In this document: piece after piece, positions 7,851 to 25,159 of the stretch | How the letters are laid out: every line of letters begins with the position of its first letter | How positions within the stretch are numbered: the first letter of the stretch is position 1 | Sequence record: MN013077.1 | Length of the DNA stretch: 64,000 nucleotides | Direction: 5' to 3' (one strand) | Origin: Klebsiella phage vB_KaeM_KaOmega | Notes under the pieces: model-generated | Databases searched by the model: none | Told to the model about the DNA's origin: nothing | Seen by the model: only the letters and a program-made list of their open reading frames with translations | Program-made: the position numbers and the translations under genes

Positions 7851-7892
7851 TGGGTCATCTTTCGAGATGGCCCTTTTTCTTTTGGAGGAAAT

Positions 7893-9449
7893 ATGTTCGA
7901 TAATATCATGAGTGCCGAGGAGCTTGAGCTTGCCAACGCAAATACAGAAGAGGCAGAGAAACTCCTTGAGGCTGCAAGTCTTCAACTGATGCGCTACAAG
8001 CCCTTCTACGGGGTAATGTTGGCATCAATGCCGATCACCCGTGCCACGGAGACCATCAACACGATGGCTACCAACGGGCGTGACTTGTTTTATTCCCCAG
8101 AGTTCGTTGCGGGGATGTGTGACAAGCGTAAGGCGCTGGTAAAACAGCGTATTGACCAGCAGGTCAAGGACAAGAAAAAGAACGCAGAGATGAAGTTAAT
8201 GATCGATGTGTTTTATCGTCGCAAGACTGCCCGTGAGGTGGCCTTGGTTCTGGAGCACGAATGCGATCACGTGGTTTCTGAGCACATGTACCGTGGGAAA
8301 GGATACAACTTCGCGCTGTTCAACATCGCAGCCGACCATCGTATCAACACGAACGCTGTTCTGAACCACACAACGAATAATGAAATGGGTACAGCCTGGT
8401 TCCCTCTGGGTGCCAAAACGGTGTTCGACCCAGACAAAGAGTTTGGCTTCATGAAGTGGGCATACTGTGATTTCCAGTACGCAGATATGTATGCCGAGCA
8501 GATCTATGAACTTCTCGTTAAGCAGACTCCTCCCCCTCCACCGAGCGGTGGTGGCAGCGGTGCATCGGGTAGCGGGGAAGAGGGCAAAGGTGATTCCGGT
8601 GATCAGGGGAATGGCCCGATGGGTACTGATCAACACCCAAATGCAGACGGGACCTTCAGCGAACAAGATGGGGAGGACGACCTGTCCAAAGCAATGGGTA
8701 CTGATCCGGGGGCGATGAAGCCACTCACTCAGGAACAGAAGAATTATAACGATACGGTAATGCGCCGGGCAATCGAAAACGCTGTTCAGGCAGCAGGCAA
8801 GGGAGCGCCAGCAGATGCTCGTAAGTTTGTGGAAGAAGCCGGAAAACCGAAGGTTAACTACCTGCGACTGTTACGTCGGACAATTGAGCGATTGTTCAAA
8901 GACAACGTTTCATACCGTCGTTTAAACCGCCGTAGTTACTCCCTGACGCGATCTTTGCGTCAAGCAGGGTATCTTACTTCCCGGCAGACGATCGGCCTTC
9001 CTTCGTACACTAAGGCCAAGACAATCCGTGCCCACGTGTTCTTCGACGTGTCTGGATCGTTCACCGATGATCTTTTGGGGCCAACTAAACGTGAGATCAA
9101 GGGATTGTGCAATCAATATGAGGACTTTGAGGTCACAATGGCGGCTTGGTCCACAAAGGTTGGTAACATTTGCACGTACACGAAGAAGAACCTGAAGGAG
9201 ATTGATAACTATAAGATCCAAACGACTTACGGGACGGACGTGAAGTGCGTGTTCGAATGTCTTGATGAGCTTGACAAAGAGCCGGACCAGATTGTAATCT
9301 ATACAGATGGTTACTTCTCTGATGTATCTCAGACCAAAAACTGGGCGGAGAAGTATGGCAAGAAGACTCTGTGGATCATTTTGGGCCGTCATGGGCCTGA
9401 ATGGACTCCACCGTTTGGAACTGCAATTGACTTTGACAAATACCTGTAA
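7893..9449 (+). CDS. VWA-domain protein with N-terminal putative metallopeptidase (HExxH) module (DUF2201-type partner of AAA+ ATPase)
   Basis: 518 aa. HECDH (HExxH) in LVLEHECDHVVSEH. Pro/Gly/Ser-rich linker. C-terminal VWA with MIDAS-like DVSGSFTDD. Gene pair with upstream MoxR ATPase. Confidence 0.7.
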   Translation: MFDNIMSAEELELANANTEEAEKLLEAASLQLMRYKPFYGVMLASMPITRATETINTMATNGRDLFYSPEFVAGMCDKRKALVKQRIDQQVKDKKKNAEMKLMIDVFYRRKTAREVALVLEHECDHVVSEHMYRGKGYNFALFNIAADHRINTNAVLNHTTNNEMGTAWFPLGAKTVFDPDKEFGFMKWAYCDFQYADMYAEQIYELLVKQTPPPPPSGGGSGASGSGEEGKGDSGDQGNGPMGTDQHPNADGTFSEQDGEDDLSKAMGTDPGAMKPLTQEQKNYNDTVMRRAIENAVQAAGKGAPADARKFVEEAGKPKVNYLRLLRRTIERLFKDNVSYRRLNRRSYSLTRSLRQAGYLTSRQTIGLPSYTKAKTIRAHVFFDVSGSFTDDLLGPTKREIKGLCNQYEDFEVTMAAWSTKVGNICTYTKKNLKEIDNYKIQTTYGTDVKCVFECLDELDKEPDQIVIYTDGYFSDVSQTKNWAEKYGKKTLWIILGRHGPEWTPPFGTAIDFDKYL

Positions 9450-9457
9450 GGAGAATT

Positions 9458-9835
9458 ATGTCACAGTACGGTTATCAATTGGAGTGTGGTCGCCGGGGGG
9501 CGACCCTCTCTGTCTTCCGCTTGGATGCATCCGGCGGCGTGGAGTACACCTGGAGAGCGATTTTCAACAGCCGGGGTATGGAAGTGGTAAGGTCTACAGG
9601 GGAGGGTATTGAAACTCAACTGGCGCACTTTGAGACATTCCTGTACCCAGACTGTGTTGAAGAGGATGAACTGGCATTCGTGGATCTTCTTTCGATGTCT
9701 CCTGTGGAGGAGGACCATGATTTTATCCGGTTGTGTTCCTTCTTGGTTGCCAAGTGGGCAGCGGGCCACAATGAAGAAATGTTGCACGATGTAATTCGTC
9801 CCACACTCAAAAAGTGGTCGGAAGTGACAACATGA
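9458..9835 (+). CDS. hypothetical protein (possible third gene of MoxR-VWA operon)
   Basis: 125-aa ORF with TAAGGAGAATTATG SD; immediately follows the VWA gene. Confidence 0.55.
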   Translation: MSQYGYQLECGRRGATLSVFRLDASGGVEYTWRAIFNSRGMEVVRSTGEGIETQLAHFETFLYPDCVEEDELAFVDLLSMSPVEEDHDFIRLCSFLVAKWAAGHNEEMLHDVIRPTLKKWSEVTT

Positions 9836-10075
9836 CCATGTAGCCCTACGGGACACACGAAGTAATAATAGATCTAACACCTTCGCTACGCTCACCCATC
9901 CGGGCCTACGGGGTGTTGATCTGATCTTATAATAAAACTTCCCCACTCACATTCGTTCGGGGTCAGTTTTATTAAATTTCTTCGAAATTGTCATTGACAA
10001 CAACATTCCCTTCATGTATCTTTGTGTTCAAGGGAGATGACTCCCACACAACAAATAACATGAAGGAGAGACAAT

Positions 10076-10978: not shown

Positions 10979-11111
10979 ATGGCGCTTCTGGGAGCATACT
11001 TTGGTTTTTACTGGGTGGCTCTTCGGATACGGTCATGATGTGTACTACGGTGTGAAGGATAGCCGCAACAAGGCATACTTCGCCTATACTTTCCACAAGG
11101 GGCGAGCATGA
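10953..11111 (+). CDS. hypothetical small protein
   Basis: GTG at 10953 after AAGGAGAAGG SD (track ORF 10911..11111); 52 aa. Confidence 0.35.
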   Translation: MKKAYLKYKWRFWEHTLVFTGWLFGYGHDVYYGVKDSRNKAYFAYTFHKGRA

Positions 11112-11350
11112 ACCTCGGGAAAAACCAAATCGGGGTATTGAAGTGTCTCGGAGATGGGCGTTACGGGTATATCGCTTTTCCTTGGGGCTGCGGGTGGGTG
11201 TGGAACACCCGACAAGGGACGATCAAGATCCTTGAAACTCTGGTCAAAAAGGGCCTGGTTGATAAGGGTACATATACAACCGAAGAGGGTAAGTCTTACC
11301 CTCAATATACCATCTCTCACGCCGGGGAAGTGTACCTCCTCGGAAGATAA
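11108..11350 (+). CDS. hypothetical protein, winged-helix-like
   Basis: 80 aa. GTIKILETLVKKGLV resembles a recognition helix/wing. Likely paralog of the next gene. Confidence 0.45.
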   Translation: MNLGKNQIGVLKCLGDGRYGYIAFPWGCGWVWNTRQGTIKILETLVKKGLVDKGTYTTEEGKSYPQYTISHAGEVYLLGR

Positions 11351-11381: not shown

Positions 11382-11579
11382 ATGGCTAAACTAACTAAAC
11401 CCCAGCAAAAATTCCTGCTGGCTGCGCTCGGCGGTGACCACAATCGTGACCTGAAGGGAAAGGTCCAAGATAACTTGGCTTCCCAAGGACTGATCCGTTA
11501 TCTTCCGCCGTTTGGCTGGGTTCTCACCGCAGAGGGCGGGGAAATTGCCCGTGAACTGGAGGCCCGTCGTGCAGATTAA
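11382..11579 (+). CDS. hypothetical protein, winged-helix-like (paralog of 11108..11350)
   Basis: ATG at 11382 after AAGGAACAGAT. 65 aa; QQKFLLAALGGD...LASQGLIRYL...GWVLTAEGGEIA parallels the previous protein. Confidence 0.45.
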   Translation: MAKLTKPQQKFLLAALGGDHNRDLKGKVQDNLASQGLIRYLPPFGWVLTAEGGEIARELEARRAD

Positions 11580-14546: not shown

Positions 14547-15407
14547 ATGTCCTCATTTGATGCGGTTTTCTTACACGGTGTTGCTGACTATTCCAAGGGC
14601 ACCAGCCCAACACCCGAGATCCCGGACTGGAAAAATTTACAGCGCCGCCTAGCCGATGTGGAAAAGACTGCCAAGACTGAATGGCAGAACAACGATGCAA
14701 TAGCGTCAGACATTAGCGACATTGCCAGTGACTTTGATTTCGACTCTTCCCTTGAGGATTTCGTAATCAGGGCAAATGATAAGATAGACCATCTGCACCA
14801 AGGTATCCGCGATGCCAGCTATGATCTCAATACCAACTGGGACCCAGATGGGATGACACGTGATCAGATGGTGACTTTTGTCGAGAACCTTAAAGATCAC
14901 CTCCAAGAATACCTTCCAAACTCCCAGAAAATGAGGGAGGTTGCTATCGGTTGGTACGGCTACGAGGTGGCCCGATTTGTTCAGGAGTATCATCCACTGG
15001 GCCAAGCATGGCTCTGCTACACACATGACGACACATATATGGGTGATTTGCACGACTCCAAGCTGGGTGACCTTGCTATCAAGGCTTGTGCCAATGGAAT
15101 CCTGAGATTCACAACCCAATGGGTTCCTGGTTACCTGCACTTTACCAGTGACAATAGGATTGTCATGGGTGACAGGGAAGGTCAGGGCGGTCTCGTGATG
15201 AAGGTGGATGAGTTCAGGACATACTTCGAAGACTGGAGGCGACCAACAGAAGAGGAGATTGGCCTGTTTGATGTTCTCCACCCGGGGGCAAACTGGTCGG
15301 TATTCCGATACCTGCGTGACTACGAAGGGAAGAACTATATATCGAACAAAAAGATCATTACCACCATCCCAACAAACAGTTTGATTTCTGTGAGCACAGC
15401 CCTGTGA
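14547..15407 (+). CDS. hypothetical protein
   Basis: 286-aa ORF; last gene before the 15.4-16.3 kb noncoding repeat region. Confidence 0.55.
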   Translation: MSSFDAVFLHGVADYSKGTSPTPEIPDWKNLQRRLADVEKTAKTEWQNNDAIASDISDIASDFDFDSSLEDFVIRANDKIDHLHQGIRDASYDLNTNWDPDGMTRDQMVTFVENLKDHLQEYLPNSQKMREVAIGWYGYEVARFVQEYHPLGQAWLCYTHDDTYMGDLHDSKLGDLAIKACANGILRFTTQWVPGYLHFTSDNRIVMGDREGQGGLVMKVDEFRTYFEDWRRPTEEEIGLFDVLHPGANWSVFRYLRDYEGKNYISNKKIITTIPTNSLISVSTAL

Positions 15408-15712
15408 TATTTGTGAGCCAAGGACGGCTCAGATTTCAGATCGGTTTTCGATTTGATATTTGTACCTGATATTTGTGTAGATATTTGAAATCAGATTTCA
15501 ACTCGAAATTCAATTTGAGATTTTATTTGGTATGGCCCGGCGGGCCGGAACCCAGATCTGATTTCTTTTTCAGATTTACTGACCAATGTACCAAACTGAC
15601 TGACCTTTGGTCAATACCTATTGCATCATAAATGTTACATTAAGGGGCTTATGACTCGTTAATGACACATAAACGTTACATAGTGAGAGTTATCCTCTGT
15701 CAGAAAATTTGA

Positions 15713-15758
15713 GGGTCTCGATCGACTTTTCATTTTGCCGATCGTATTTTCTGTACAG
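15713..15758 (+). repeat. bipartite repeat element GGGTCTCGATCG-N16-GATCGTATTTTC (copy 2)
   Basis: Exact 12-mer at 15713; ATCGTATT starts 28 nt downstream (15741). Confidence 0.6.
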
Positions 15759-15770
15759 CCCGGCTGTCCG

Positions 15771-15782
15771 GGGTCTCGATAG
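15771..15782 (+). repeat. degenerate half-copy GGGTCTCGATAG
   Basis: 11/12 match to the 12-mer; no downstream ATCGTATT partner. Confidence 0.4.
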
Positions 15783-15790
15783 AAAAATCG

Positions 15791-15836
15791 GGGTCTCGAT
15801 CGGTTTTTCGATTTCCAGATCGTATTCTCGATACAG
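15791..15836 (+). repeat. bipartite repeat element (copy 3)
   Basis: GGGTCTCGATCG at 15791; ATCGTATT at 15819 (offset 28). Confidence 0.6.
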
Positions 15837-15853
15837 GTACAGGTCTCACGCCG

Positions 15854-15905
15854 GGGTCTCGATCGAAAGTTCAAAACCCAAAACGTATTCTCAAAATCTA
15901 TACAG
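15854..15905 (+). repeat. bipartite repeat element (copy 4, second half AACGTATTCTC)
   Basis: GGGTCTCGATCG at 15854; AACGTATT at 15882 (offset 28). Confidence 0.55.
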
Positions 15906-15957
15906 AGGTGAAAATCGAAATGCAAATCGTTATCATTATCACGTCGCCCGGGTCGGA

Positions 15958-15974
15958 ATGAGAATCGTTCTCAT
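15958..15974. promoter_or_regulatory. operator-like palindrome ATGAGAA-TCG-TTCTCAT
   Basis: 7-bp perfect inverted arms with 3-nt centre. A sister site lies 58 bp downstream. Confidence 0.5.
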
Positions 15975-16015
15975 TTGCAAATGTAACTGATAATCATTCG
16001 CATTTAGGTTGTTGA

Positions 16016-16032
16016 ATGAGAATCATTCTCAT
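16016..16032. promoter_or_regulatory. operator-like perfect palindrome ATGAGAAT-C-ATTCTCAT
   Basis: 8+1+8 perfect palindrome. The half-site ATTCTCAT recurs 4 times at 29158-29241. Confidence 0.55.
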
Positions 16033-16308
16033 CTCCAGAATAGCGGGCAGGTCCGGTGATTGTCTCCGGGTCAATTCTCCCCGCTATGTGTATAATATAA
16101 CCCAGGCCCGGCCCGGTGGCAAGCGTCTTTACAGTTCTTTACAAAACTATTTTAGGCGAACTACCGGCGATCCACCTTCCGACCTGGCCCCGGTGCCCGG
16201 TACGTTAGCCCCGCCTTTTCGCCGTGGGGTGGCGTCTCCTCTCCTGTATGTGTACATTATGCACCAGGCCAGCCGGGCCGTCAATACCAAAATCAAAATA
16301 AATTTTTC

Positions 16309-16337
16309 TTGACCCACCAGGCCAGCCGGGCCACAAT
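16309..16337 (+). promoter_or_regulatory. sigma70-like promoter TTGACC-N17-CACAAT with GC-rich spacer (GGCCAGCCGGGCC)
   Basis: Precedes SD AAAAGGAGA and ATG 16368; the spacer motif CACCAGGCCAGCCGGGCC also occurs at 16262. Confidence 0.45.
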
Positions 16338-16367: not shown

Positions 16368-16700
16368 ATGCAACAGACGAAATATTTTATTGAAGGAACA
16401 GCCGCCGCCCACGCCGGGCAGATCCGCGCCTGCCGCTACAATAAAGAAGAGAACCGCCGGGAATGGTTCGCCGGGTTCGATAGTGTGGATCGTGGCTATG
16501 CCGTGTTTAAGATCCTCCCTGGTCCCGGCGCTGTTAAGCTGGCTGACCTGGACCCCGTTTATATTGGTGGCGTTAAACAATGCCAAGATCGCGCCGTTAC
16601 CCTGCAACAGGCAGACCGCGCCGGGCGCTATGTCATTTATGATATGGCAACGGGCAAGCCGTACCAGGAAAGCACAAAATTAAATTACAAAAATATTTAA
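16368..16700 (+). CDS. cassette ORF, hypothetical protein
   Basis: 110 aa; strong SD; first ORF of the plus-strand array. Confidence 0.55.
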   Translation: MQQTKYFIEGTAAAHAGQIRACRYNKEENRREWFAGFDSVDRGYAVFKILPGPGAVKLADLDPVYIGGVKQCQDRAVTLQQADRAGRYVIYDMATGKPYQESTKLNYKNI

Positions 16701-16708
16701 AATAATGC

Positions 16709-16737
16709 TTGACGGGGCCGACGATAGGCCCCATAAT
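16709..16737 (+). promoter_or_regulatory. hairpin-spacer sigma70 promoter (TTGACG-GGGGCC gacgat GGCCCC-ATAAT)
   Basis: -35 TTGACG and -10 CATAAT 17 nt apart; spacer folds as a 6-bp GC hairpin. Archetype of about 20 copies. Confidence 0.65.
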
Positions 16738-16789
16738 TAACCACATAGCGACGCACACCGCGCCGCACTAACAAAGAGAGACCGTCATC

Positions 16790-17227
16790 ATGTTACATTC
16801 AATCAATAAAGAGCAAAAACTGTACGTCCTGAAGTGTGGCAACGGCTTTACCTGCTATGGGTTCGAAGTGCTGGACACAAACGCCCGCAAGGTTAAACAG
16901 TGGTTAGAATCTGAAGGTGCAACAGTCGAGGATCTCCCATATCGCAAGGGCACAAAGAAGCATTATAAAGCCTGTCAAGATATGATCGCCGCTGGTTGTG
17001 CTTATCATGCCAGAACGGGCAAACGCTGCCTTGCTGGACTCACCAAACAATTAAAGGGCCTGGAGGGTCGCCGGGTAGAGGTTGTCACCATGTACGGCGA
17101 AAAACGCCGCTTTATTGTGGGCCGTTCTACTGGCTGGATGCCTGCCCACTTAGAGATCGCCCGCGTCAACAGTAGCGGCGGCATGAGTGCAGAGCAGGAA
17201 TATAAATCTGTAACTATCGTAAAATAA
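16790..17227 (+). CDS. cassette ORF, hypothetical protein
   Basis: 145 aa; conserved TIR AAAGAGAGACCGTCATCATG. Confidence 0.55.
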   Translation: MLHSINKEQKLYVLKCGNGFTCYGFEVLDTNARKVKQWLESEGATVEDLPYRKGTKKHYKACQDMIAAGCAYHARTGKRCLAGLTKQLKGLEGRRVEVVTMYGEKRRFIVGRSTGWMPAHLEIARVNSSGGMSAEQEYKSVTIVK

Positions 17228-17230
17228 ACG

Positions 17231-17259
17231 TTGACACCGGGGCCACCTAGCCCCATAAT
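17231..17259 (+). promoter_or_regulatory. hairpin-spacer sigma70 promoter
   Basis: TTGACA-CCGGGGCC acctag CCCC-ATAAT. Confidence 0.6.
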
Positions 17260-17309
17260 ACAAACAAGCCCGGCAAATGGTGCCCGGCAAAATCAGAGAG
17301 TAAAAGAAA

Positions 17310-17531
17310 ATGGCTAAAGTAACCTATAAAAAATCACGTGGCGTTTCCTCTGTTAACCTGGCGGCGGTTGTAACCCTGCCCGCATACCGTACCCGTGACG
17401 AGGCGCGCGCCGTTGCCAGTAAGATCCGCGCCGCTGGCGTGACCCCGACAACGCCAACCAAAACGGCGGACGGCTGGCGAGTTACCGCAAAGCATAACGG
17501 CGGCACACTTTCCCGCAACACTCACCGCTAA
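17310..17531 (+). CDS. cassette ORF, hypothetical protein
   Basis: 73 aa; Ala/Thr-rich. Confidence 0.5.
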   Translation: MAKVTYKKSRGVSSVNLAAVVTLPAYRTRDEARAVASKIRAAGVTPTTPTKTADGWRVTAKHNGGTLSRNTHR

Positions 17532-17540
17532 CCAATTGCA

Positions 17541-17560
17541 GGCCCCCGGCGGGGGCCTTT
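17541..17560 (+). terminator. GC hairpin terminator (weak U-tract)
   Basis: GGCCCCC-GGC-GGGGGCC followed by TTTC. Confidence 0.45.
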
Positions 17561-17577
17561 CGTGTGGAGTCAGTAAC

Positions 17578-17922
17578 ATGACCAAACAGATCTACCATGT
17601 ACCGATCACGCCGCTTTTCCGTTGTCATATCTTTTATGACTGTAATGATCTTGCGGGGCAATGGATCGGCGATACCGATCAACAATATGATTTCCCGGAA
17701 TGGGACGAACTAAACCGCCGTGTAAGCAACGCCGCACACAATGCCGATCCTGATAGCCTGGCGGACGTGGAACACTTCCCCGGCGGGGCCGCTTGTTTTC
17801 CTTATATTGAGATCACCGCGCCAACGTGGGCGCTATGTAAAGCGATGGGCGACGCCGTGATCCGTTGCATCCTGGACAATGGCGGGATCGTCGAACCAAA
17901 AGACAACGGAATAAATATTTAA
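17578..17922 (+). CDS. cassette ORF, hypothetical protein
   Basis: ATG 17578 after GGAG (track ORF starts with TTG at 17536); 114 aa. Confidence 0.5.
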   Translation: MTKQIYHVPITPLFRCHIFYDCNDLAGQWIGDTDQQYDFPEWDELNRRVSNAAHNADPDSLADVEHFPGGAACFPYIEITAPTWALCKAMGDAVIRCILDNGGIVEPKDNGINI

Positions 17923-17941
17923 ATTATTTTCGTTTTAGGGG

Positions 17942-17970
17942 TTGACGCCCGGCGGCGTTACCCTCATAAT
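17942..17970 (+). promoter_or_regulatory. hairpin-spacer sigma70 promoter
   Basis: TTGACG-CCCGGCGGCG ttaccct-CATAAT. Confidence 0.55.
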
Positions 17971-18022
17971 GTATCACATAGGGCGACGGAATAACCCGCC
18001 GCCAAAACCAAAAGGTAACAGT

Positions 18023-18262
18023 ATGCAAACCGTAATGATTAGCCACCCGGATCACGCTTCAGACTTCTACGCCCCGATTTACGCGCCGCTTGAATGGCAA
18101 CGCGCCGGACTGCAAAAAACCGCCACGGGCTACGGCACAAAGATCCCGACGTCCTACATGTTGGACTATCAAGGCAAGCGCCGCCGGATCTACGTTGACC
18201 AGTACAGCAACAGCGGCCACACTTACATAATGATCAAAGGCGAAAAAATTACGGTCTGCTAA
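18023..18262 (+). CDS. cassette ORF, hypothetical protein
   Basis: ATG 18023 after AAAAGGTAACAGT (track ORF 17942 runs through the promoter); 79 aa. Confidence 0.5.
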   Translation: MQTVMISHPDHASDFYAPIYAPLEWQRAGLQKTATGYGTKIPTSYMLDYQGKRRRIYVDQYSNSGHTYIMIKGEKITVC

Positions 18263-18271
18263 AAATAATTG

Positions 18272-18301
18272 TTGACCAGGGGCCGGGTTAGGCCCCATAA
18301 T
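18272..18301 (+). promoter_or_regulatory. hairpin-spacer sigma70 promoter
   Basis: TTGACC-AGGGGCC gggtta GGCCCC-ATAAT. Confidence 0.6.
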
Positions 18302-18333
18302 ACCAGACATACCAAACAAACGAGGCTTTAAAA

Positions 18334-18564
18334 ATGAATCTGACTACTATCGGCGCTAACCAAACTATGATCACCCTGGCAAATGGCGCACAGGTTTTCT
18401 TTTCCTACAATACCCCGGTTGCGGCATACCTGCCCGGCGAGGGCTACTTGGTGACCGCCACAAAGCACAGCGCCACCACCTCAAAGCATGTTAACGCTTG
18501 GGCTGGCAAAGGTTGCGAGACCCGCCCACAGGAATTTTTTGATAATCTGATTAAATCCGCTTGA
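18334..18564 (+). CDS. cassette ORF, hypothetical protein
   Basis: 76 aa. Confidence 0.5.
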   Translation: MNLTTIGANQTMITLANGAQVFFSYNTPVAAYLPGEGYLVTATKHSATTSKHVNAWAGKGCETRPQEFFDNLIKSA

Positions 18565-18590
18565 CGTTGGTTTATGCTGGGGTATATAAT
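18561..18590 (+). promoter_or_regulatory. sigma70 promoter TTGACG-N18-TATAAT
   Basis: TTGACGTTGGTTTATGCTGGGGTATATAAT. Confidence 0.55.
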
Positions 18591-18642
18591 CCCCGGCATA
18601 GGCAAGCGAAAGCAAACAACCAAACCGAAAGGATAGTAAACG

Positions 18643-19023
18643 ATGAACATTATCAACACTGTAAACGCTAACGAAATCAAAGAAATTTCCGTAACTGGTA
18701 AACGTTGGTTCCAACGTAGCGCCGGGAACACTTACCACAGTGTAAGCCTGGCGGCGCTGGTATCCGTAGAAGTGGCGGACCGTTTAGGCGCTAACCAATA
18801 CGGAAACAAGTCCGGCGACGTGTGGATCGACCTGGCTTATGTTGGTTTCGCTTATGGGTATGAGCGCGGATTTGAACAAACCGCATTAAGTGCAATGATC
18901 GAGGCGGTGAAGGATTCCCCGGCGGCGTGGCGTAAAATGGTTTACGCTTGCCAGGCGGCGGCGGATCTGGGGGTTGTTTACACTGATAACGTTTACGACG
19001 TAAGCCGCAAAAAAGATTTATAA
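18643..19023 (+). CDS. cassette ORF, hypothetical protein
   Basis: 126 aa; SD AAAGGATAG. Confidence 0.55.
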   Translation: MNIINTVNANEIKEISVTGKRWFQRSAGNTYHSVSLAALVSVEVADRLGANQYGNKSGDVWIDLAYVGFAYGYERGFEQTALSAMIEAVKDSPAAWRKMVYACQAAADLGVVYTDNVYDVSRKKDL

Positions 19024-19029
19024 TTGTGG

Positions 19030-19059
19030 TTGACACGGGGCCGGGTTAGGCCCCATAAT
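19030..19059 (+). promoter_or_regulatory. hairpin-spacer sigma70 promoter
   Basis: TTGACA-CGGGGCC gggtta GGCCCC-ATAAT. Confidence 0.6.
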
Positions 19060-19091
19060 ACCCGCACACCAACAGAAAAGAGATTCACACC

Positions 19092-19301
19092 ATGATCAAC
19101 GAACAGCAAGTAAACGACGTTAAACATGAGGCTTACCAGGTGGCGATCCGTAGCGGTTCCCGCGCCGCCTTTAATCTGGTTGTTGAGTTGTACCCAGAGC
19201 AGGCGCAAAATATCTTGATGCAGGTATCCGTTTTACTGGAGGCGACAAAGCACACCAAATTAAGCGCCGGGATCGACCGCCTCGCAAATAGTTTAAAATA
19301 G
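19092..19301 (+). CDS. cassette ORF, hypothetical protein
   Basis: 69 aa. Confidence 0.5.
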   Translation: MINEQQVNDVKHEAYQVAIRSGSRAAFNLVVELYPEQAQNILMQVSVLLEATKHTKLSAGIDRLANSLK

Positions 19302-19304
19302 TTG

Positions 19305-19333
19305 TTGACATCGGGGCCACCCGGCCCCATAAT
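19305..19333 (+). promoter_or_regulatory. hairpin-spacer sigma70 promoter
   Basis: TTGACA-TCGGGGCC accc GGCCCC-ATAAT. Confidence 0.6.
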
Positions 19334-19383
19334 CTGATACATAGCGACGCACAACGCGCCGCACAAAATAGAGAGACCGTAAA

Positions 19384-19749
19384 ATGACTACTTCCACCAA
19401 AAACACCGCCGCTACTGCCGCCGTTCGCGCTTACGTTGTATCTGTTATCGACTTTGAAGGCACCGACGCCGAAAAGCTGAAATTTTTCTTTGATACCCTG
19501 CAATCTGAATACGGGCACGAGGTTAGCCGCTTGGGTCCACAACGCGCCATCACGGAATATCTTCGCGGCCTGCCGTCGTCAATCAATCATGCTTTTATGA
19601 ATCATGAGATCCTTGATCTTTTGTCTGAATGGGGTTACATTCATTTCCACACCACAGCAGCCCAGGAAGAATGGGAGTTAGATCAGTATTGGACACGTTT
19701 GGCGGGTTCTCTGATTATTCAGGCACGTAAGCACGGGGTGATTGAATGA
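19384..19749 (+). CDS. cassette ORF, hypothetical protein
   Basis: 121 aa; TIR AGAGAGACCGTAAAATG. Confidence 0.55.
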   Translation: MTTSTKNTAATAAVRAYVVSVIDFEGTDAEKLKFFFDTLQSEYGHEVSRLGPQRAITEYLRGLPSSINHAFMNHEILDLLSEWGYIHFHTTAAQEEWELDQYWTRLAGSLIIQARKHGVIE

Positions 19750-20060
19750 TTACAGTTCTAACCTTGATCGGGTTAGCGGCGGCGGCGCTGTACTGCGTCG
19801 CCACTTACAAGGCGTCAGTTTGGCGGAAGGGTCAAAAAATGTACGGCTATTTTGAATATGAGTACAAAGGGGAGAAGGGATCAAGCCGGGACTATGGCGC
19901 GATGTTAGAGATCGATATGGTTGGCGCTATGAATTATCGCCAGGAGTTAGGCGCGGCGATCACTTATGAAGTTTATGATCCCTCAGAAGAGAAGATCGGG
20001 GAGATAATTGATCAACGTTACTATATGGAACAGCAACAAAACAAACGCCGGAGAAAATGA
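19746..20060 (+). CDS. hypothetical protein with N-terminal TM helix
   Basis: 104 aa; ATGA overlap; MITVLTLIGLAAAALYCVATY is hydrophobic. Confidence 0.5.
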   Translation: MITVLTLIGLAAAALYCVATYKASVWRKGQKMYGYFEYEYKGEKGSSRDYGAMLEIDMVGAMNYRQELGAAITYEVYDPSEEKIGEIIDQRYYMEQQQNKRRRK

Positions 20061-20197
20061 GAATGATTCACACTAATATTAACCGCGATAAACAACCGCG
20101 CCGCGCCCGTCTCTCATATGCTGAAGCAGGCGAGCGCCTGCAACGTGAGAAGGCCAACAAACAACAGCGCCGTAAAACGCGCTATAACTGGGAGTAA
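20057..20197 (+). CDS. putative 46-aa basic peptide
   Basis: ATGA overlap; Arg/Lys-rich (QPRRARLSYAEAGERLQREKANKQQRRKTRYNWE); precedes a terminator. Confidence 0.3.
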   Translation: MRMIHTNINRDKQPRRARLSYAEAGERLQREKANKQQRRKTRYNWE

Positions 20198-20243
20198 CCG
20201 CCCCCGGCATGGAAACACCAGGCCAAACCGTTTAAACCGCACA

Positions 20244-20269
20244 GGGGGCCGCTTAGGCCCCTTATTTTT
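20244..20269 (+). terminator. rho-independent terminator
   Basis: GGGGCC-gctta-GGCCCC followed by TTATTTTTG. Confidence 0.65.
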
Positions 20270-20286
20270 GATCTACGGGGTACACA

Positions 20287-20514
20287 ATGCAAAACCTTTA
20301 CAGCATGACCGAATTTATCCGATTGTTAGCAGGTCGCCCGATGGGGTTTACCTGCCTTTACCTGGTAACCGACGGCAAAGGCTATCGTATAACGTCCAAA
20401 TCATTAGCCGCCATTGCAGCGCGGGAAGGGGTGAAGATCTCCACCTCCCAGGCGCTGATTGTGGACCCGGCGACCGTGGCGACGATTGAGGCGATCCGGG
20501 TTACCGTAAAATAA
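20287..20514 (+). CDS. hypothetical protein
   Basis: 75 aa; no cassette promoter directly upstream. Confidence 0.4.
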   Translation: MQNLYSMTEFIRLLAGRPMGFTCLYLVTDGKGYRITSKSLAAIAAREGVKISTSQALIVDPATVATIEAIRVTVK

Positions 20515-20538
20515 TTTAAAATATTTTCATCCTGGGGC

Positions 20539-20567
20539 TTGACGTCCGGCCCCGGTTCCCCCATAAT
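20539..20567 (+). promoter_or_regulatory. hairpin-spacer sigma70 promoter
   Basis: TTGACG-TCCGGCCCCGGTTCCCC-CATAAT. Confidence 0.55.
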
Positions 20568-20617
20568 CTAACCCATAGCGACGCACACCGCGCCGCACAA
20601 ACAAAAGAGAGACCGTT

Positions 20618-21034
20618 ATGACTTCCCCAATTTTCCGTATCAAATCAGGCTTATCGGCTTACGCATTATCTTGCGGTTACTTCCAGCGTATCGAGTCAGA
20701 GATCACCGGGGAAGATATCCGGGTTGACCTTTGGCATGAGTCGGGCCACTTCCACGCCCGCGCCCACAATTTTACAACCTCCACTCGGATCGAATGGGTA
20801 ACAGAAAGTAACCTTGACGACGCCCGCACACAATGGGCCGCGCTTGTCAAACAAATTTTTGGCGACGTGATCCGCACCATTAAAAAGGATAAGCGCTACA
20901 CCGTAAACCGTGAGTTTGCCGGAGAGTCATCACCCGCTTATGTGACCCGCTTTTGTGGCGAATGGGTATCAAACAGCGATACCGCGCCCGGCGCATGGGT
21001 AAAAGCCGCCGAACACAACGCCGAAAGAATTTAA
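20618..21034 (+). CDS. cassette ORF, hypothetical protein
   Basis: 138 aa; TIR AAAAGAGAGACCGTTATG. Confidence 0.55.
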   Translation: MTSPIFRIKSGLSAYALSCGYFQRIESEITGEDIRVDLWHESGHFHARAHNFTTSTRIEWVTESNLDDARTQWAALVKQIFGDVIRTIKKDKRYTVNREFAGESSPAYVTRFCGEWVSNSDTAPGAWVKAAEHNAERI

Positions 21035-21043
21035 AAATAATTG

Positions 21044-21072
21044 TTGACGGGGCCGACGATAGGCCCCATAAT
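21044..21072 (+). promoter_or_regulatory. hairpin-spacer sigma70 promoter (identical core to 16709)
   Basis: TTGACG-GGGCC gacgat AGGCCCC-ATAAT. Confidence 0.65.
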
Positions 21073-21103
21073 ACCCACAGATAAGCAAACCGGAGTTAGA
21101 CCA

Positions 21104-21256
21104 ATGAAACATTATCTTGTAAACATTCCTGGCGTGGCTGGCCCGCTTAAAGTTTTCGGCTATGATGAACAGGACGCAAGAAAGCGCCTACGTGATCGGG
21201 AAGGTTTCGGATCACGCCTCCCACGGGGCACAAAATTTTATTTGCAAAACGCTTGA
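21104..21256 (+). CDS. cassette ORF, 50-aa hypothetical protein
   Basis: ATG 21104 (MKHYLVNIPG...) after GGAG; track ORF 21041 starts inside the promoter. Confidence 0.45.
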   Translation: MKHYLVNIPGVAGPLKVFGYDEQDARKRLRDREGFGSRLPRGTKFYLQNA

Positions 21257-21282
21257 CGTGTGGTTATGCCGTCCCTTACAAT
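21253..21282 (+). promoter_or_regulatory. sigma70 promoter TTGACG-N18-TACAAT with hairpin GCCGTC..GACGGC
   Basis: TTGACGTGTGGTTATGCCGTCCCTTACAATGACGGCAT. Confidence 0.5.
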
Positions 21283-21334
21283 GACGGCATAGACAAACGA
21301 AAGCAAACCAGACAACCAAACGAGGGTTACAATT

Positions 21335-21586
21335 ATGTTTGAAGTATTCGCCGGAATGTGTTTTTATGCTGCCGCCGCTTTAAAACAGTGTGATGATTAC
21401 ACCGTTGAAGCATACGATGATCAATTAACGTGTGAGATCGTCGCCAATGGCTACCGTCAGGACCCGCGCTGGATTAACCCGGCTTGCATACCGGGGCCGG
21501 AAGTGGAAGCAATGCCGGAGGGTGATCCGTGGCTTGAACCTGTACCGCCTGCCGATCATTTCAATGTTAACCCGGCACAAAAATAA
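21335..21586 (+). CDS. cassette ORF, hypothetical protein
   Basis: 83 aa. Confidence 0.5.
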   Translation: MFEVFAGMCFYAAAALKQCDDYTVEAYDDQLTCEIVANGYRQDPRWINPACIPGPEVEAMPEGDPWLEPVPPADHFNVNPAQK

Positions 21587-21589
21587 TTG

Positions 21590-21617
21590 TTGACGTGTGG
21601 TTATAGGTCTGTATAAT
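21590..21617 (+). promoter_or_regulatory. sigma70 promoter TTGACG-N16-TATAAT
   Basis: TTGACGTGTGGTTATAGGTCTGTATAAT. Confidence 0.55.
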
Positions 21618-21660
21618 GCGGACCTATAGACAAACGAAACGCCACCAAACGAGGCACAAA

Positions 21661-22020
21661 ATGAAATCATACGCTGAAGCTATCGCCACCCGTCCCGATC
21701 TCCTGGTAAAGGGTGATCTATTCCTTACGCTGGAGACTTTCGATTTTTCCCGTGATATCAACGGCAATACGATCAACAAATATCGCGCCGCGCTTGTCTC
21801 AGGCGACGAACAAAGCGTTTTAAACTGGTACGCCGCCGCCAATGAGCTGGAGATCCTCAAATCACCTTATCGCCGTGAACAGTCCCATAATGACGGCGCA
21901 AGCGCCGCCCTTTATCGCTTGGGCTTGCTGGGGTACGAACTGGAATACATTACCACACAATACGGCCCCGGCAAGCGCCGCGCCTATCGAATTTTCTACC
22001 GTGTAAAGAATGCAAAATAA
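21661..22020 (+). CDS. cassette ORF, hypothetical protein
   Basis: ATG 21661 after AACGAGGCACAAA (track ORF 21616 over-extended); 119 aa. Confidence 0.5.
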   Translation: MKSYAEAIATRPDLLVKGDLFLTLETFDFSRDINGNTINKYRAALVSGDEQSVLNWYAAANELEILKSPYRREQSHNDGASAALYRLGLLGYELEYITTQYGPGKRRAYRIFYRVKNAK

Positions 22021-22023
22021 GTA

Positions 22024-22052
22024 TTGACCAGGGGCCGGAAAGGCCCCATAAT
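22024..22052 (+). promoter_or_regulatory. hairpin-spacer sigma70 promoter
   Basis: TTGACC-AGGGGCC ggaa AGGCCCC-ATAAT. Confidence 0.6.
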
Positions 22053-22088
22053 ACCAGACATACCCAAACAGGCATAAGAGGCCACAAA

Positions 22089-22268
22089 ATGAAATCATCT
22101 TTACTTTTCGCCCTGGTTGACATCGTGATCGGCAACGGTTGCGGGCAACATACTTTCATAGCTAACCGCCCCTATCCGCTGAAGTCATTGCAGGCCGACG
22201 CCCGCCTAACCGCCGGGCAGATCCGCCGCTACTTTCGTGAACCACACCCGGCAAAAAGTGCAAAATAA
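22089..22268 (+). CDS. cassette ORF, 59-aa hypothetical protein
   Basis: ATG 22089 after TAAGAGGCCACAAA; below the track cutoff. Confidence 0.4.
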   Translation: MKSSLLFALVDIVIGNGCGQHTFIANRPYPLKSLQADARLTAGQIRRYFREPHPAKSAK

Positions 22269-22271
22269 TTG

Positions 22272-22301
22272 TTGACGCCGGGCACCGTCCCGGCTTACAA
22301 T
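22272..22301 (+). promoter_or_regulatory. hairpin-spacer sigma70 promoter (TACAAT -10)
   Basis: TTGACG-CCGGGCACCGTCCCGGCT-TACAAT. Confidence 0.55.
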
Positions 22302-22330
22302 GACCTCACACAAACAAACGAGGCTATAAC

Positions 22331-22627
22331 ATGCAACAGGCTAACACTCTTTTCATTCTGGCAAACGTAGCGGATCACGTCGTGGCTTCATTGTCTAACG
22401 TGGCGGGCACCGTCCAGATCATTTGCCGCCATATGGATGACAAAGCGCCGAACCGCTTACAAATCAACGTAGACCGCGCCGGGAAAGAATTTGTGATCTC
22501 TTATGACGCTATCTACAACGGCAAGCGGATCACGCAAGCAAAAAGCCAGCCTATCCCCGGCGATTTTGTCCAGGACGTGATCGCCGATATCGTAAACGAC
22601 ACGATCCCAGCGGGGGCCGCTGTATGA
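22331..22627 (+). CDS. cassette ORF, hypothetical protein
   Basis: 98 aa. Confidence 0.5.
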   Translation: MQQANTLFILANVADHVVASLSNVAGTVQIICRHMDDKAPNRLQINVDRAGKEFVISYDAIYNGKRITQAKSQPIPGDFVQDVIADIVNDTIPAGAAV

Positions 22628-22779
22628 ATCCGCATAAACTTTTAATCACCAGCTACACCAGCAAGGCGGATCGCCGTGAAACTTTGGACCGCTTAACCCG
22701 CTATTATCAGGAGGCCGGGCACAATAAGACAACCGCCCGCGCCCTGGCTAAAAAACGTTTACGTTTTGGTAAAAATTAG
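22624..22779 (+). CDS. putative 51-aa basic protein
   Basis: ATGA overlap; MNPHKLLITSYTSKADRRETLDRLTRYY... Confidence 0.3.
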   Translation: MNPHKLLITSYTSKADRRETLDRLTRYYQEAGHNKTTARALAKKRLRFGKN

Positions 22780-22780
22780 C

Positions 22781-22809
22781 TTGACGCCCGGCCCGAAAGG
22801 GCCGATAAT
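22781..22809 (+). promoter_or_regulatory. hairpin-spacer sigma70 promoter (GATAAT -10)
   Basis: TTGACG-CCCGGCCC gaaa GGGCC-GATAAT. Confidence 0.6.
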
Positions 22810-22861
22810 CTCTCACATAGGGCGGGGAATGGTTCCCCGCATTATCTAAGAGGTTATGAAC

Positions 22862-23014
22862 ATGTTTACTTTGATGACTTGGGAACACGAATCAAGCGCC
22901 CCGATCCGCCGGACCTTTGAAAACTTATGCGCTGCTTATCGCCTGGCGCAAGGCGGTTACTATAAAGCCCAAATCATCGACGAAAACAATATTGTAATGT
23001 ACGAATTTAAATGA
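22862..23014 (+). CDS. cassette ORF, 50-aa hypothetical protein
   Basis: ATG 22862 with TAAGAGG SD 8 nt upstream; the leader holds the CATAGGGCGGGGAATGGTTCCCCGC hairpin. Confidence 0.4.
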   Translation: MFTLMTWEHESSAPIRRTFENLCAAYRLAQGGYYKAQIIDENNIVMYEFK

Positions 23015-23043
23015 TTGACATCCGGCCCGAAAGGGCCGATAAT
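23015..23043 (+). promoter_or_regulatory. hairpin-spacer sigma70 promoter (GATAAT -10)
   Basis: TTGACA-TCCGGCCC gaaa GGGCC-GATAAT. Confidence 0.6.
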
Positions 23044-23076
23044 GACCCCCACACCAAACAAAAGAGAGACCGTAAA

Positions 23077-23283
23077 ATGATTACTATGATTCTGCAAAAG
23101 TCCCGCCTGATTGATGTTACCGTCACCCTGTCCGCTTGCGGTGAATCATCCCGCCGGGCCGATCATTACCAGGTTACCGCTGTAAGCGACAACGGCGCGA
23201 TCCTGCTGTCTGAGGCGACCCCCGCGCTACATGAGGCATTTTTGACTTATTCGAAGTGGAAAGGGCCGGAAGAAATAAAATAA
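23077..23283 (+). CDS. cassette ORF, hypothetical protein
   Basis: ATG 23077 after AAAAGAGAGACCGTAAA; 68 aa. Confidence 0.5.
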   Translation: MITMILQKSRLIDVTVTLSACGESSRRADHYQVTAVSDNGAILLSEATPALHEAFLTYSKWKGPEEIK

Positions 23284-23290
23284 AAAGTAG

Positions 23291-23319
23291 TTGACGGCGG
23301 GGCCGATAGGCCCCATAAT
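23291..23319 (+). promoter_or_regulatory. hairpin-spacer sigma70 promoter
   Basis: TTGACG-GCGGGGCC gat AGGCCCC-ATAAT. Confidence 0.6.
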
Positions 23320-23353
23320 ACCACCACACCAAACGAATAAAGAGAATCACAAA

Positions 23354-23608
23354 ATGTTAAAATTCATCAAATCACTTTTCACCCGTACCGCCCCGGCTTG
23401 CAAGTTGCCACCCCTGGAGGCGAAAGGTGTGATCGCTCGCAAAGTCTCAGAATTGTTTATCATTTCATTGGTTCACAATGGCGGCGACTGTTACGAAATC
23501 ATCGAAATGGGCCGCTACACTAAAACAGGATCAAGCCGTGTCCGCTACGGTGAACACCGCGCCCGGAATCATTTTGATTCTGTATGCTGTATGGTCGGTG
23601 CAAAATAA
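23354..23608 (+). CDS. cassette ORF, hypothetical protein
   Basis: ATG 23354 (MLKFIKSLF...); 84 aa. Confidence 0.5.
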   Translation: MLKFIKSLFTRTAPACKLPPLEAKGVIARKVSELFIISLVHNGGDCYEIIEMGRYTKTGSSRVRYGEHRARNHFDSVCCMVGAK

Positions 23609-23611
23609 ACC

Positions 23612-23640
23612 TTGACGGGGCCAACGTTAGGCCCCATAAT
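23612..23640 (+). promoter_or_regulatory. hairpin-spacer sigma70 promoter
   Basis: TTGACG-GGGCC aacgtt AGGCCCC-ATAAT. Confidence 0.6.
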
Positions 23641-23690
23641 GTATCACACAGGGCGACACAACGCCGCCCACAAACAAAAGGCAGACCGTT

Positions 23691-24053
23691 ATGATCTTCA
23701 ATATCACCGAACTGAAAAAGAAAATGTCAGAGATGCTCTTCAATATTAGTGAATACGGGCACCCGTCCTACACTATCTTTGAGGCTGTTTTGTCAAAGTG
23801 CCAAAAGTTCGAATTAGTGATCGAGGTTGTACCGGGTCGCCTCCTGAAGTTGGGATCTGGCAAGTGGGGTTATAAACTTGATGCCTACGTCCAACAGTTA
23901 GCCGCCGGGGCCGATCCTATGGCAGATGATTATTGCGATGATGCCGACACTATCGCAAGCGTGGACGGTGAATATTGCCGGACAAAGGCGGCGCTTTTTG
24001 AAGCGATCAGCGAAGTTATCAACGAAGCAAAAGAAAACGTAATAACACGATAA
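23691..24053 (+). CDS. cassette ORF, hypothetical acidic protein
   Basis: 120 aa; TIR AAAAGGCAGACCGTTATG. Confidence 0.55.
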   Translation: MIFNITELKKKMSEMLFNISEYGHPSYTIFEAVLSKCQKFELVIEVVPGRLLKLGSGKWGYKLDAYVQQLAAGADPMADDYCDDADTIASVDGEYCRTKAALFEAISEVINEAKENVITR

Positions 24054-24067
24054 GCTAAAAAGAATTG

Positions 24068-24097
24068 TTGACGCCGGGAAGCGTTACGGGTTATACT
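24068..24097 (+). promoter_or_regulatory. sigma70 promoter TTGACG-N18-TATACT
   Basis: TTGACGCCGGGAAGCGTTACGGGTTATACT. Confidence 0.45.
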
Positions 24098-24145
24098 CTT
24101 TTCATCGGGTCACAACAGACCACAACAAACAAAGAGAGAAACAAA

Positions 24146-24223
24146 ATGAGCGTAATCTTCCTAGTATCTGTTTTCGTAGCTATTGCATCTTCTACCGCAA
24201 TTTGTATCAAACTGGGATACTAA
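24146..24223 (+). CDS. putative 25-aa hydrophobic peptide
   Basis: Own promoter and AAAGAGAGAAACAAA SD; MSVIFLVSVFVAIASSTAICIKLGY. Confidence 0.3.
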   Translation: MSVIFLVSVFVAIASSTAICIKLGY

Positions 24224-24227
24224 TTAA

Positions 24228-25106: not shown

Positions 25107-25159
25107 GTCTCTCATAGGGCGGGGAATGGTCCCCGGCCCAATGAACTGGAGTCAGTACA

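Follow-up and report, generated by a model that had tools for sequence, protein, structure and literature searches.

The DNA analysed here is a 64-kb window (the whole stretch examined, whose coordinates are used throughout) of Klebsiella phage vB_KaeM_KaOmega (MN013077.1), a large lytic myovirus that belongs to the Vequintavirinae genus Certrevirus. The elements in question are short palindromes, grouped in arrays, that resemble the binding site of the host repressor Fur (the Fur box) and lie in the non-coding DNA at both borders of a block of small gene cassettes. The closest complete relative of the window is Enterobacter phage vB_ExiM_F1M1E (OL744211; F1M1E below), with ~91% identity, and further relatives are the Cronobacter phages PBES02 and CR3/8/9 and the Pectobacterium phages phiTE and CB7. 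Within the block, at 16.3-28.4 kb, a promoter scan found ~20 near-consensus sigma-70 promoters (TTGACR-17-CATAAT), each followed by small plus-strand open reading frames (ORFs). Since the homologous region of phage rV5 carries a sigma-70 promoter annotation as well, the cassette block is concluded to be the early region, transcribed by the host RNA polymerase. To its right, a non-coding island of ~1.1 kb (~28412-29500) lies between the terminator of the plus-strand array and a minus-strand terminator-like hairpin.

An earlier note on this sequence had pointed to two palindromes 58 bp apart at the left border, ATGAGAA-TCG-TTCTCAT at 15958 and ATGAGAAT-C-ATTCTCAT at 16016, the latter a perfect 8+1+8 palindrome, and both are correct in sequence and in position. 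Two more boxes had been overlooked, one midway between them (15988, TGATAATCATTCGCA) and a weaker one at 15921, making the left border a tiled array whose last three boxes (15959, 15988 and 16017) follow each other at 29-bp steps. At the right border, where four copies of the half-site had been counted in 29158-29241, three are exact copies of ATTCTCAT (29158, 29199 and 29234) and the fourth, at 29174, reads ATTCTCAA. The right island holds seven boxes in all (28699, 28956, 29150, 29167, 29191, 29226 and 29274), and two others, at 20058 and 26702, lie in the interior of the block. The predicted boxes of the two borders, none of which is assigned a strand, are listed below, with scores in bits from position weight matrices (PWMs) of phage or host sites.

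15921 to 15935 (19-mer 15919 to 15937, AATGCAAATCGTTATCATT): distal, weaker Fur box; 17.8 bits with the phage PWM, 21.1 bits with the host PWM; kept in F1M1E and phiTE.
15959 to 15973: Fur box L3, TGAGAATCGTTCTCA; 27.9 bits, and the top window match of the host PWM (23.8 bits).
15988 to 16002: Fur box L2, TGATAATCATTCGCA; 29 bp from either neighbour.
16017 to 16031: Fur box L1, the perfect palindrome TGAGAATCATTCTCA, 0 mismatches.
28699 to 28713: Fur box CGAGAATGATTATCA, over a predicted start site; kept in 6/6 Certreviruses.
28956 to 28970: Fur box TGAGAGTTATTCTTA; abuts a second ATCTGCATAA element.
29150 to 29240: right-border array of four Fur boxes (29150, 29167, 29191, 29226); positions kept, spacers drifting in six phages.
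29274 to 29294: two overlapping Fur boxes, TGGGAATGATTATCA and TGATTATCATTATCC, the last of the right border.

How strongly these sites exceed expectation depends on how much of the motif is counted. The 8-mer half-site by itself occurs nine times in the window against 2.84 expected, a roughly 3-fold enrichment that one of 100 shuffles equals. The 15-mer with up to three mismatches occurs 16 times against 3.08 expected, with no shuffle out of 100 as high, and PWM matches of at least 13 bits number 13 against 0.77 (maximum 4). In the two non-coding borders (1,989 bp) there are 11 boxes where a local first-order Markov null predicts 0.037 (maximum 1 in 1,000). The complete F1M1E genome (149.8 kb) has 15 of its 16 sites inside the equivalent 12.6-kb block, with ~1.4 expected genome-wide, indicating that the motif is concentrated locally and not spread over the genome. 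In phiTE all matches of at least 16 bits except two fall in the homologous block, and the five weaker matches (10-12 bits) are about what shuffled sequence gives (4.7). The earlier note had proposed a motif search across the genome and had held that a half-site frequency no higher than expected in the rest of it, together with no protein binding, would speak against its idea; no excess was found there, a result that does not thereby refute a local element. The modest enrichment of the bare 8-mer, together with the overlap of some interior boxes with ORF starts, is what a compositional artefact of AT-rich non-coding DNA would look like, and chance of this kind is effectively refuted by the border counts, by the concentration of the F1M1E sites in one block, by the retention of box positions in phages of seven genera and by the mutual recognition between phage boxes and host operators described next.

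The identity of the motif emerged from the orthologous boxes of F1M1E and the window, which differ by G/T swaps at position 4 in the direction of the canonical TGATAAT (the window's TGAGAATCATTCTCA corresponds to TGATAATCATTTTCA in F1M1E). These swaps show the true motif to be TGAKAATNATTMTCA, and the canonical Fur 7-1-7 box, TGATAATNATTATCA, forms part of it. Seven window sites lie within two mismatches of that consensus, and at position 4 the phage boxes have G or T, which is also the case for the host sites of ryhB, fhuA and feoA. The classical Fur 19-mer, GATAATGATAATCATTATC, has three matches in the window with up to three mismatches against 0 expected, among them 28700 and 29275. The best of the window's 19-mer matches, GATAATGATAATCATTCCC at 29275, has two mismatches, where again 0 are expected.

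A PWM made from 12 phage sites only was then scanned over 158 kb of Escherichia coli K-12 picked to hold known Fur targets, and seven of its eight best matches are the operators of ryhB, fhuA, entC/fepB (two sites), feoA, fepD/entS and fepA/fes, with 24.8 bits for ryhB (AATAATAATCATTCTCATT) and 20.0 bits for fhuA. In the reverse direction, all 14 best matches in the window of a PWM made from seven host operators fall on phage boxes. The half-site ATTCTCAT is itself the half-site of the ryhB and feoA operators, and fhuA has a one-mismatch variant of it (ATTCTCGT). By sequence, therefore, the phage palindromes are not distinguishable from the enterobacterial Fur box, and we are confident, short of certainty, that they are Fur-binding sites under selection. 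The remaining top-eight match in K-12 is a Fur-like site, ATTGAGAATCATTCTGAAT (19.4 bits), in the map-rpsB intergenic region (NC_000913.3, 189581-189599), which was not recognised as a known Fur target.

Conservation at the left border was assessed in an alignment of eight phages representing Certrevirus, Seunavirus, Vequintavirus, Mydovirus, Henunavirus, an unclassified Serratia phage and Phapecoctavirus (Stephanstirmvirinae), whose hosts belong to seven genera (Enterobacter, Pectobacterium, Salmonella, Escherichia, Klebsiella, Serratia and Erwinia). The proximal box (16017 in the window) occupies the same position in all eight, accompanied by zero to three extra boxes at exact 29-bp steps, and the 29-bp tiling recurs in F1M1E, phiTE, BIS47, ChuuTotoro and Schickermooser. 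In the right island of six Certreviruses the boxes are kept while the spacers between them drift, a pattern of purifying selection, with gains on insertions (CB7, phiTE) and losses (CR9, POP15). The box at 28956 seems less constrained, because it is lost or replaced in CR9 and POP15. The two-border layout is also found in phiTE (left 39474-39569, right 49210-50021), in rV5 (left 14990-15155; right 26946-27080, in the gap between plus- and minus-strand blocks) and in SSE121. The proposal that operator-like arrays for a dimeric DNA-binding protein stand at both borders of the cassette block is thus supported in form, with a layout kept across genera.

The boxes extend beyond these myoviruses. 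In BLAST searches with the left border, T5-like phages match across the box triplet only. In T5 (AY587007.1) the box matches at 9473-9636 coincide with annotated features, namely palindromes E (9473), G (9577) and I (9612) and copies of 'direct repeat C'; the window-derived matrix gives the palindromes 21.7 to 28.7 bits, and they are tiled at ~35 bp in non-coding DNA. The T5 array lies just left of the 7.9% nick (the first-step-transfer boundary) and past the last pre-early terminator, and the first 50 kb of T5 contain just three other matches of at least 12 bits (231, 6022 and 17096). In Salmonella phage Kenya-K18, another T5-like phage, at least eight Fur boxes are packed within 550 bp of non-coding terminal-repeat DNA (3995-4556).

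In addition, the perfect 19-mer AATGAGAATCATTCTCATT is present in at least 120 viral contigs, against a chance expectation that we roughly estimate at <1. Among the matches listed, 52 contigs show two or more boxes in a 400-bp span, 24 of them three or more; only 14 of the listed contigs are T5-like or Vequintavirinae-like, the others forming ~60 unrelated clusters. Four contigs with arrays, spanning 31-59% GC, illustrate the variety: L133 (7038-7134; four boxes, 26-bp period, 56% GC), L085 (1810-1888; three perfect boxes, 30-bp period), L051 (2688-2780; 37-bp period) and L100 (1470-1669; ~35-bp period). The matches of L085 and L133 to known phages cover the array alone. The arrays of these contigs are non-coding, some of them just upstream of consensus sigma-70 promoters; some of the contigs may be prophages, and their boxes would then be ordinary operators of cargo genes. 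Altogether, the arrays span two large-myovirus subfamilies, the T5 family and dozens of unclassified viral contig clusters.

This distribution bears directly on which protein binds. The earlier note had named as candidates the products of two small ORFs, 11108-11350 and 11382-11579, which it took for winged-helix paralogs. A palindromic 7-1-7 motif would suit any dimeric regulator, and ORF 11108-11350 does show a PadR-like winged-helix match (E 0.004), so a phage-encoded dimeric regulator, either resembling Fur by coincidence in its site or competing with Fur for it, has to be considered. The PadR match, however, falls below the Pfam cutoff (17.5 bits versus 27), ORF 11382-11579 matches no Pfam family, and the two products give no BLASTP alignment at E<=100 and are not detectably paralogous. 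The 11108-11350 protein occurs in 22 phage records, all Certrevirus, and is only 48-52% identical in F1M1E and CR9 despite nearly unchanged boxes; at E<=1e-3, tblastn detects it in no Vequintavirus, Seunavirus or T5-like record, although rV5, SSE121 and the T5-like phages do carry the motif. Arrays of the lambda OR/OL type likewise place several palindromic dimer operators at the edges of early blocks, but those operators bind a phage-encoded repressor and diverge with it, as repressor operators normally do, whereas here unrelated phages share the host Fur consensus and no phage protein was found that tracks the boxes in presence and divergence. A phage-encoded binder is accordingly very improbable. 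The occurrence of one motif both in unrelated phage families and in host operators instead argues for a conserved host protein, with Fur the obvious candidate; no Fur homolog was detected by tblastn in the window or in two complete relatives (best E 2.3).

If host Fur is the binder, what it might do depends on the features around the arrays, which for the left border are as follows.

16038 to 16087: conserved element GAATAGCGGGCAGGTCCGGTGATTGTCTCC beside box L1, with a hairpin ATAGCGGG...CCCGCTAT; invariant columns in two alignments.
16094 to 16122, minus strand: promoter P_L1, TTGCCA-17-TATATT, pointing left to the Fur array; transcription start site (TSS) ~16087, which puts box L1 at ~+57 to +71.
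16126 to 16249, minus strand: strongly conserved non-coding element of ~125 nt; in 405 phage records, all Vequintavirinae and Phapecoctavirus.
16256 to 16284, minus strand: promoter P_L2, TTGACG-17-CATAAT; points left and has the consensus of the cassette promoters; functionally conserved in eight phages.

In the alignments the -35 and -10 hexamers of P_L1 and P_L2 are kept in 8/8 phages while the spacer sequences are unrelated, and this preservation of the hexamers alone is good evidence for leftward transcription. A P_L1 transcript would span the conserved hairpin before reaching the Fur boxes at ~+57 to +130, and the element at 16038-16087 is a probable 5' leader of that transcript. One compensatory change in the hairpin was spotted by eye in rV5 (ATAAC/GTTAT). 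The element at 16126-16249 is probably a small RNA made from P_L2, its strand being taken from promoter conservation only, and folding of the left conserved element with RNAalifold gives -15.6 versus -16.1 kcal/mol for the two strands. A plus-strand promoter TTGAAT-18-CAGAAT, with box L1 in its spacer, was considered and is unlikely, the essential -11 A being missing in phiTE, BIS47 and pEa55.

The right island contains the following features next to its boxes.

28389 to 28411, plus strand: terminator ending the plus-strand cassette array, GCCCGG-CATAGT-CCGGGC followed by TTTTT; read from the sequence, the scan listing the hairpin on the other strand.
28667 to 28698, plus strand: promoter-like element TTGACACTATTTATTCATTTATCTGCATAATG, with -35 TTGACA, a 19-nt spacer and -10 CATAAT; identical in the window, F1M1E, CR9, POP15 and phiTE, with one difference in CB7.
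28715 to 28915, plus strand: conserved structured RNA with closing helix GACCAATAGAAAACAGGT / ACCTGTTTTCTATTGGTC; RNAalifold on six Certreviruses gives 57 pairs, nine with compensatory double changes.
29298 to 29328, no strand assigned: -10-like pair AGTGCGTATAAGGTGTATTATGTTAAATGGG adjoining the last box; identical in 5/6 Certreviruses, with one substitution in POP15.
29505 to 29522, minus strand: terminator-like hairpin ending the minus-strand block.

Here two boxes would overlap core promoter elements: that at 28699 sits at -5 to +10 of the promoter-like element at 28667, and that at 29274 lies plausibly over a -35. The other right-border boxes have no clear promoter. For the structured RNA, an invariant U-G pair favours the plus strand. 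The pair at 29298-29328 is quasi-palindromic and can be read in two ways. On the plus strand, TTATCC-17-TATTAT would make a rightward promoter with the box over its -35; on the minus strand, CATAAT would point left across the array, leaving the box downstream of a leftward promoter. In rV5 a homologous element, GCGCATAATAGGTATTATGTTAAAT, adjoins that phage's boxes.

The 29-bp tiling is about one Fur-dimer footprint, and the two non-coding control regions stand at the outer edges of a sigma-70 early block. From this geometry we infer Fur occupancy, repression and iron dependence along the following lines. When the DNA enters an iron-replete cell, abundant pre-existing Fur-Fe2+ would coat the arrays before any phage protein is made, and the bound Fur would block host RNA polymerase in cis. 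At 28699 it would prevent initiation at the promoter-like element driving the structured non-coding RNA, and at 29274, over the -35 of the second promoter-like element, it would perhaps do the same. The left array, lying ~+57 to +130 from the leftward start, would act as a roadblock to elongation from P_L1 and P_L2 out of the block, and the right boxes, beyond the terminator of the rightward array, would block rightward read-through. Early transcription would in effect be confined to the cassette block, with the border RNAs silent while iron is plentiful; in an iron-starved host Fur would leave, and the border transcripts would be made or extended. Taken by itself, this blocking mechanism could be right or wrong with similar probability, and the full reading, that the boxes are selected Fur sites through which host Fur blocks transcription in cis at the edges of the early block, is the one we favour and consider modestly probable. 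The earlier note had offered an early-to-late switch or a boundary element; we found no specific support for a switch, and a boundary is viable with host Fur as the bound protein.

Several points weigh against this blocking role. The directions of the transcripts at both borders are deduced, and the folding at the left border and the quasi-palindromic pair at 29298-29328 leave the strand ambiguous. The promoter at 28667 has a non-canonical 19-nt spacer, which is why the scan did not call it. For a constitutive insulator, a protein that depends on iron would be a surprising component. Some of the interior boxes fall on ORF starts (encoding MRMI) and may partly be coding coincidences. The T5 array lies past the last annotated pre-early terminator with no annotated promoter, which fits a boundary or structural role better than promoter repression. 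Finally, the number of boxes varies through gains and losses, which suits the dosage of a decoy as well as it suits a roadblock.

That last point raises the possibility that the boxes act in trans. Multicopy Fur boxes on a replicating element sequester Fur, a laboratory plasmid effect exploited in the Fur titration assay (FURTA), and 13 to 16 near-consensus boxes per replicating phage genome could titrate Fur and derepress the host iron-uptake regulon. An E. coli cell holds ~5,000-10,000 Fur molecules, and late in infection there would be thousands of phage-borne sites. Derepression could feed the iron-dependent class Ia ribonucleotide reductase of the phage, whose NrdA and NrdB are encoded according to the F1M1E annotation. 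The boxes are in non-coding DNA and nearer to consensus than most host operators, one of them being a perfect palindrome, and the left-border copy number of 1 to 4 and the gains on insertions look like dosage variation. A pure sponge, however, would not need the positions relative to promoter-like elements and block borders that are conserved across genera and that suggest a cis role, and the sites are restricted to one 13-kb region instead of the whole genome. To our knowledge no natural phage decoy for Fur has been described. In T5, moreover, which carries the same arrays, host DNA is destroyed within minutes (bioRxiv 10.1101/866236), making host derepression useless. On balance we regard a decoy as unlikely.

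T5 and its relatives also bring in a structural alternative to cis blocking, in which arrays coated by Fur and possibly by other host proteins would, independently of transcription, mark the limit of the first-entering DNA or organise a nearby origin. In favour of this, T5 has its palindromes E, G and I, along with the copies of direct repeat C, right beside the 7.9% nick on its left. In Kenya-K18 the array is accompanied by two perfect DnaA boxes (TTATCCACA; 4233-4241 and 4306-4314), a perfect LexA/SOS box (TACTGTATAAATATACAGTA; 4323-4342) and six copies of TGTCGGATTTGCACA; by its sequence this locus looks like a hub of host-protein binding sites, again in line with a structural role. At the window's left border the array adjoins three 54-nt repeats and GATC-rich repeats, and the right gap of rV5 contains GTRAACAG repeats. 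There is, however, no evidence of two-step DNA injection in Vequintavirinae, and the origins of T5 map near the genome centre (bioRxiv 10.1101/866236). At the window's borders DnaA, LexA and integration host factor (IHF) sites do not cluster, a single DnaA-type TTATACACA at 16087 and zero LexA boxes being found. Origin iterons normally co-evolve with a phage initiator, whereas the boxes are the same across unrelated families; the lineage-specific repeats beside the left array are separate from them. Such a transcription-independent boundary or origin-organising role is in our judgement rather improbable.

The repeats directly left of the Fur array, at 15405-15905, are iteron-like and comprise three 54-nt units (GGGGTCTCGATCG...GATCGTATTCTC...ACAG; 15711, 15789 and 15852), four units of the TCAGATTTC type (15429-15577) and three of TGATATTTGTG. 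Klebsiella and Serratia phages have similar TCTCGATCG...CAGATCGTAT units ahead of their boxes. The tract is possibly an origin or another protein-binding array. In rV5 the GTRAACAG repeats number about ten, at 26440-26600, within the same 2.6-kb non-coding gap as the right-border Fur boxes, and they too have the look of origin iterons.

Compared with systems already described, the phage arrays combine a familiar site with an unfamiliar arrangement. They share their motif with the Fur operators of Enterobacterales (ryhB, fhuA, feoA, entC-fepB and fepA-fes), phage and host matrices recognising each other's sites, and at least one phage box likewise covers a promoter start site. Host operators, though, usually consist of one to three overlapping boxes at the promoter of one iron gene, whereas the phage arrays comprise four to five separate, tiled boxes in long non-coding regions with no iron gene nearby, mostly off recognisable core promoters. 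The prophage cargo gene stx1 has a Fur box. Another such case is sitABCD on lambdoid coliphages (PMC6969025). Cargo boxes of this kind are phage-borne, like the arrays, and tie expression to host iron status; they are nonetheless single operators of accessory genes in temperate phages, and not arrays in the core regulatory DNA of virulent ones. In our search of open-access papers and bioRxiv, outside of which most subscription journals lie, Fur boxes were described on prophage cargo only, and no arrays in Vequintavirinae or T5; nor did the search turn up a transcriptome of a Vequintavirinae infection. We therefore see here a known operator type, as judged from its sequence, whose arrangement and setting are new: virulent phages carry it as conserved tiled arrays within their core regulatory DNA.

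The nearest parallel is the injection stop signal region of T5 (palindromes E-J and direct repeats C), which shares a Fur-box array at the edge of a sigma-70 pre-early region. It differs in belonging to another family with no common flanking sequence, and in having its array inside the terminal repeat, next to DnaA boxes and the nick; the window has no paired DnaA boxes and no evident terminal repeat, and has only the array component in common with it. That T5 region has been discussed in terms of repeats, palindromes, DnaA boxes and DNA structure, with Fur unmentioned (Davison, bioRxiv 10.1101/866236; also a 2026 paper). If Fur does bind, the unexplained palindromes beside the T5 stop signal would gain a concrete protein partner. 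More broadly, and tentatively, tiled Fur-box arrays may be a widespread, hitherto unrecognised class of cis-element in virulent phages of Gram-negative bacteria, forming an instant nucleoprotein fence or an iron sensor round the DNA expressed first; palindromes E, G and I would then be part of the T5 injection stop signal, and two-step transfer or the confinement of pre-early expression would depend on Fur. Fur binding would in any case wire the early development of these phages to host iron status, and would provide a clear case of a virulent phage using a pre-existing host repressor for immediate-early control or insulation. Several phages with arrays are therapy candidates against E. coli, Klebsiella, Salmonella, Cronobacter and Pectobacterium, and iron differs sharply between laboratory media and infection sites.

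The two interior sites of the block have a more mixed character.

20058 to 20072, no strand assigned: interior Fur-like box TGAGAATGATTCACA; it shares bases with the stop codon of ORF 19746-20060 and with the start of a small ORF (ATGAGAATGATT, encoding MRMI).
26636 to 26716, plus strand: inverted second left-border module, GGAGACAAACACCGGACCTGCCCGCTATTC (26636-26665) followed by Fur box TGAGAATGGTTATCA (26702-26716; 24.9 bits).

The first is identical in F1M1E (84666) and phiTE (43999) and may partly be a coding coincidence. Interior boxes on ORF starts, reading ATGAGAATGATT (MRMI...) or ATGAATGATAAC, are found at 20057 in the window and at 84356, 84666 and 89812 in F1M1E; they may be genuine Fur boxes situated where translation starts, or else mimics of a box that arise from an N-terminal coding motif common to these ORFs. 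The second lies in a 500-bp non-coding gap of the array and was likened by eye to the reverse complement of 16038-16067.

Database scans of the borders returned little. An Rfam scan of 15.3-30.0 kb found no known RNA family, its lone match (Trp_leader, 23.8 versus 41 bits) being below threshold, and a scan for tRNA and tmRNA genes found none. Among eight ORFs at or near the borders, Pfam gave only the weak PadR match, and the ORFs overlapping boxes (16016-16312, 15709-15990 and 29162-29401) are unsupported; the frame of 29162-29401 is broken by indels in relatives. Outside the right island ATCTGCATAA shows no enrichment (six occurrences versus 3.5 expected), and it was rejected as a general phage promoter motif.

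The structured RNA at 28715-28915 contains two copies of TTACGTTCCCACGG(A)TCAAGGGA and is partly conserved in Salmonella phage SSBI34. The deposited PBES02 genome starts and ends within the same region (~28820-28895 of the window), and ~75 nt are lacking where its two ends would meet, which probably reflects a break in the assembly at an 18-bp inverted repeat and not a physical terminus. Finally, the spacers of the cassette promoters (16700-27460 in the window) are often GC-rich, as in CCAGGCCAGCCGGGCC, an unusual composition that seems to be a family trait.

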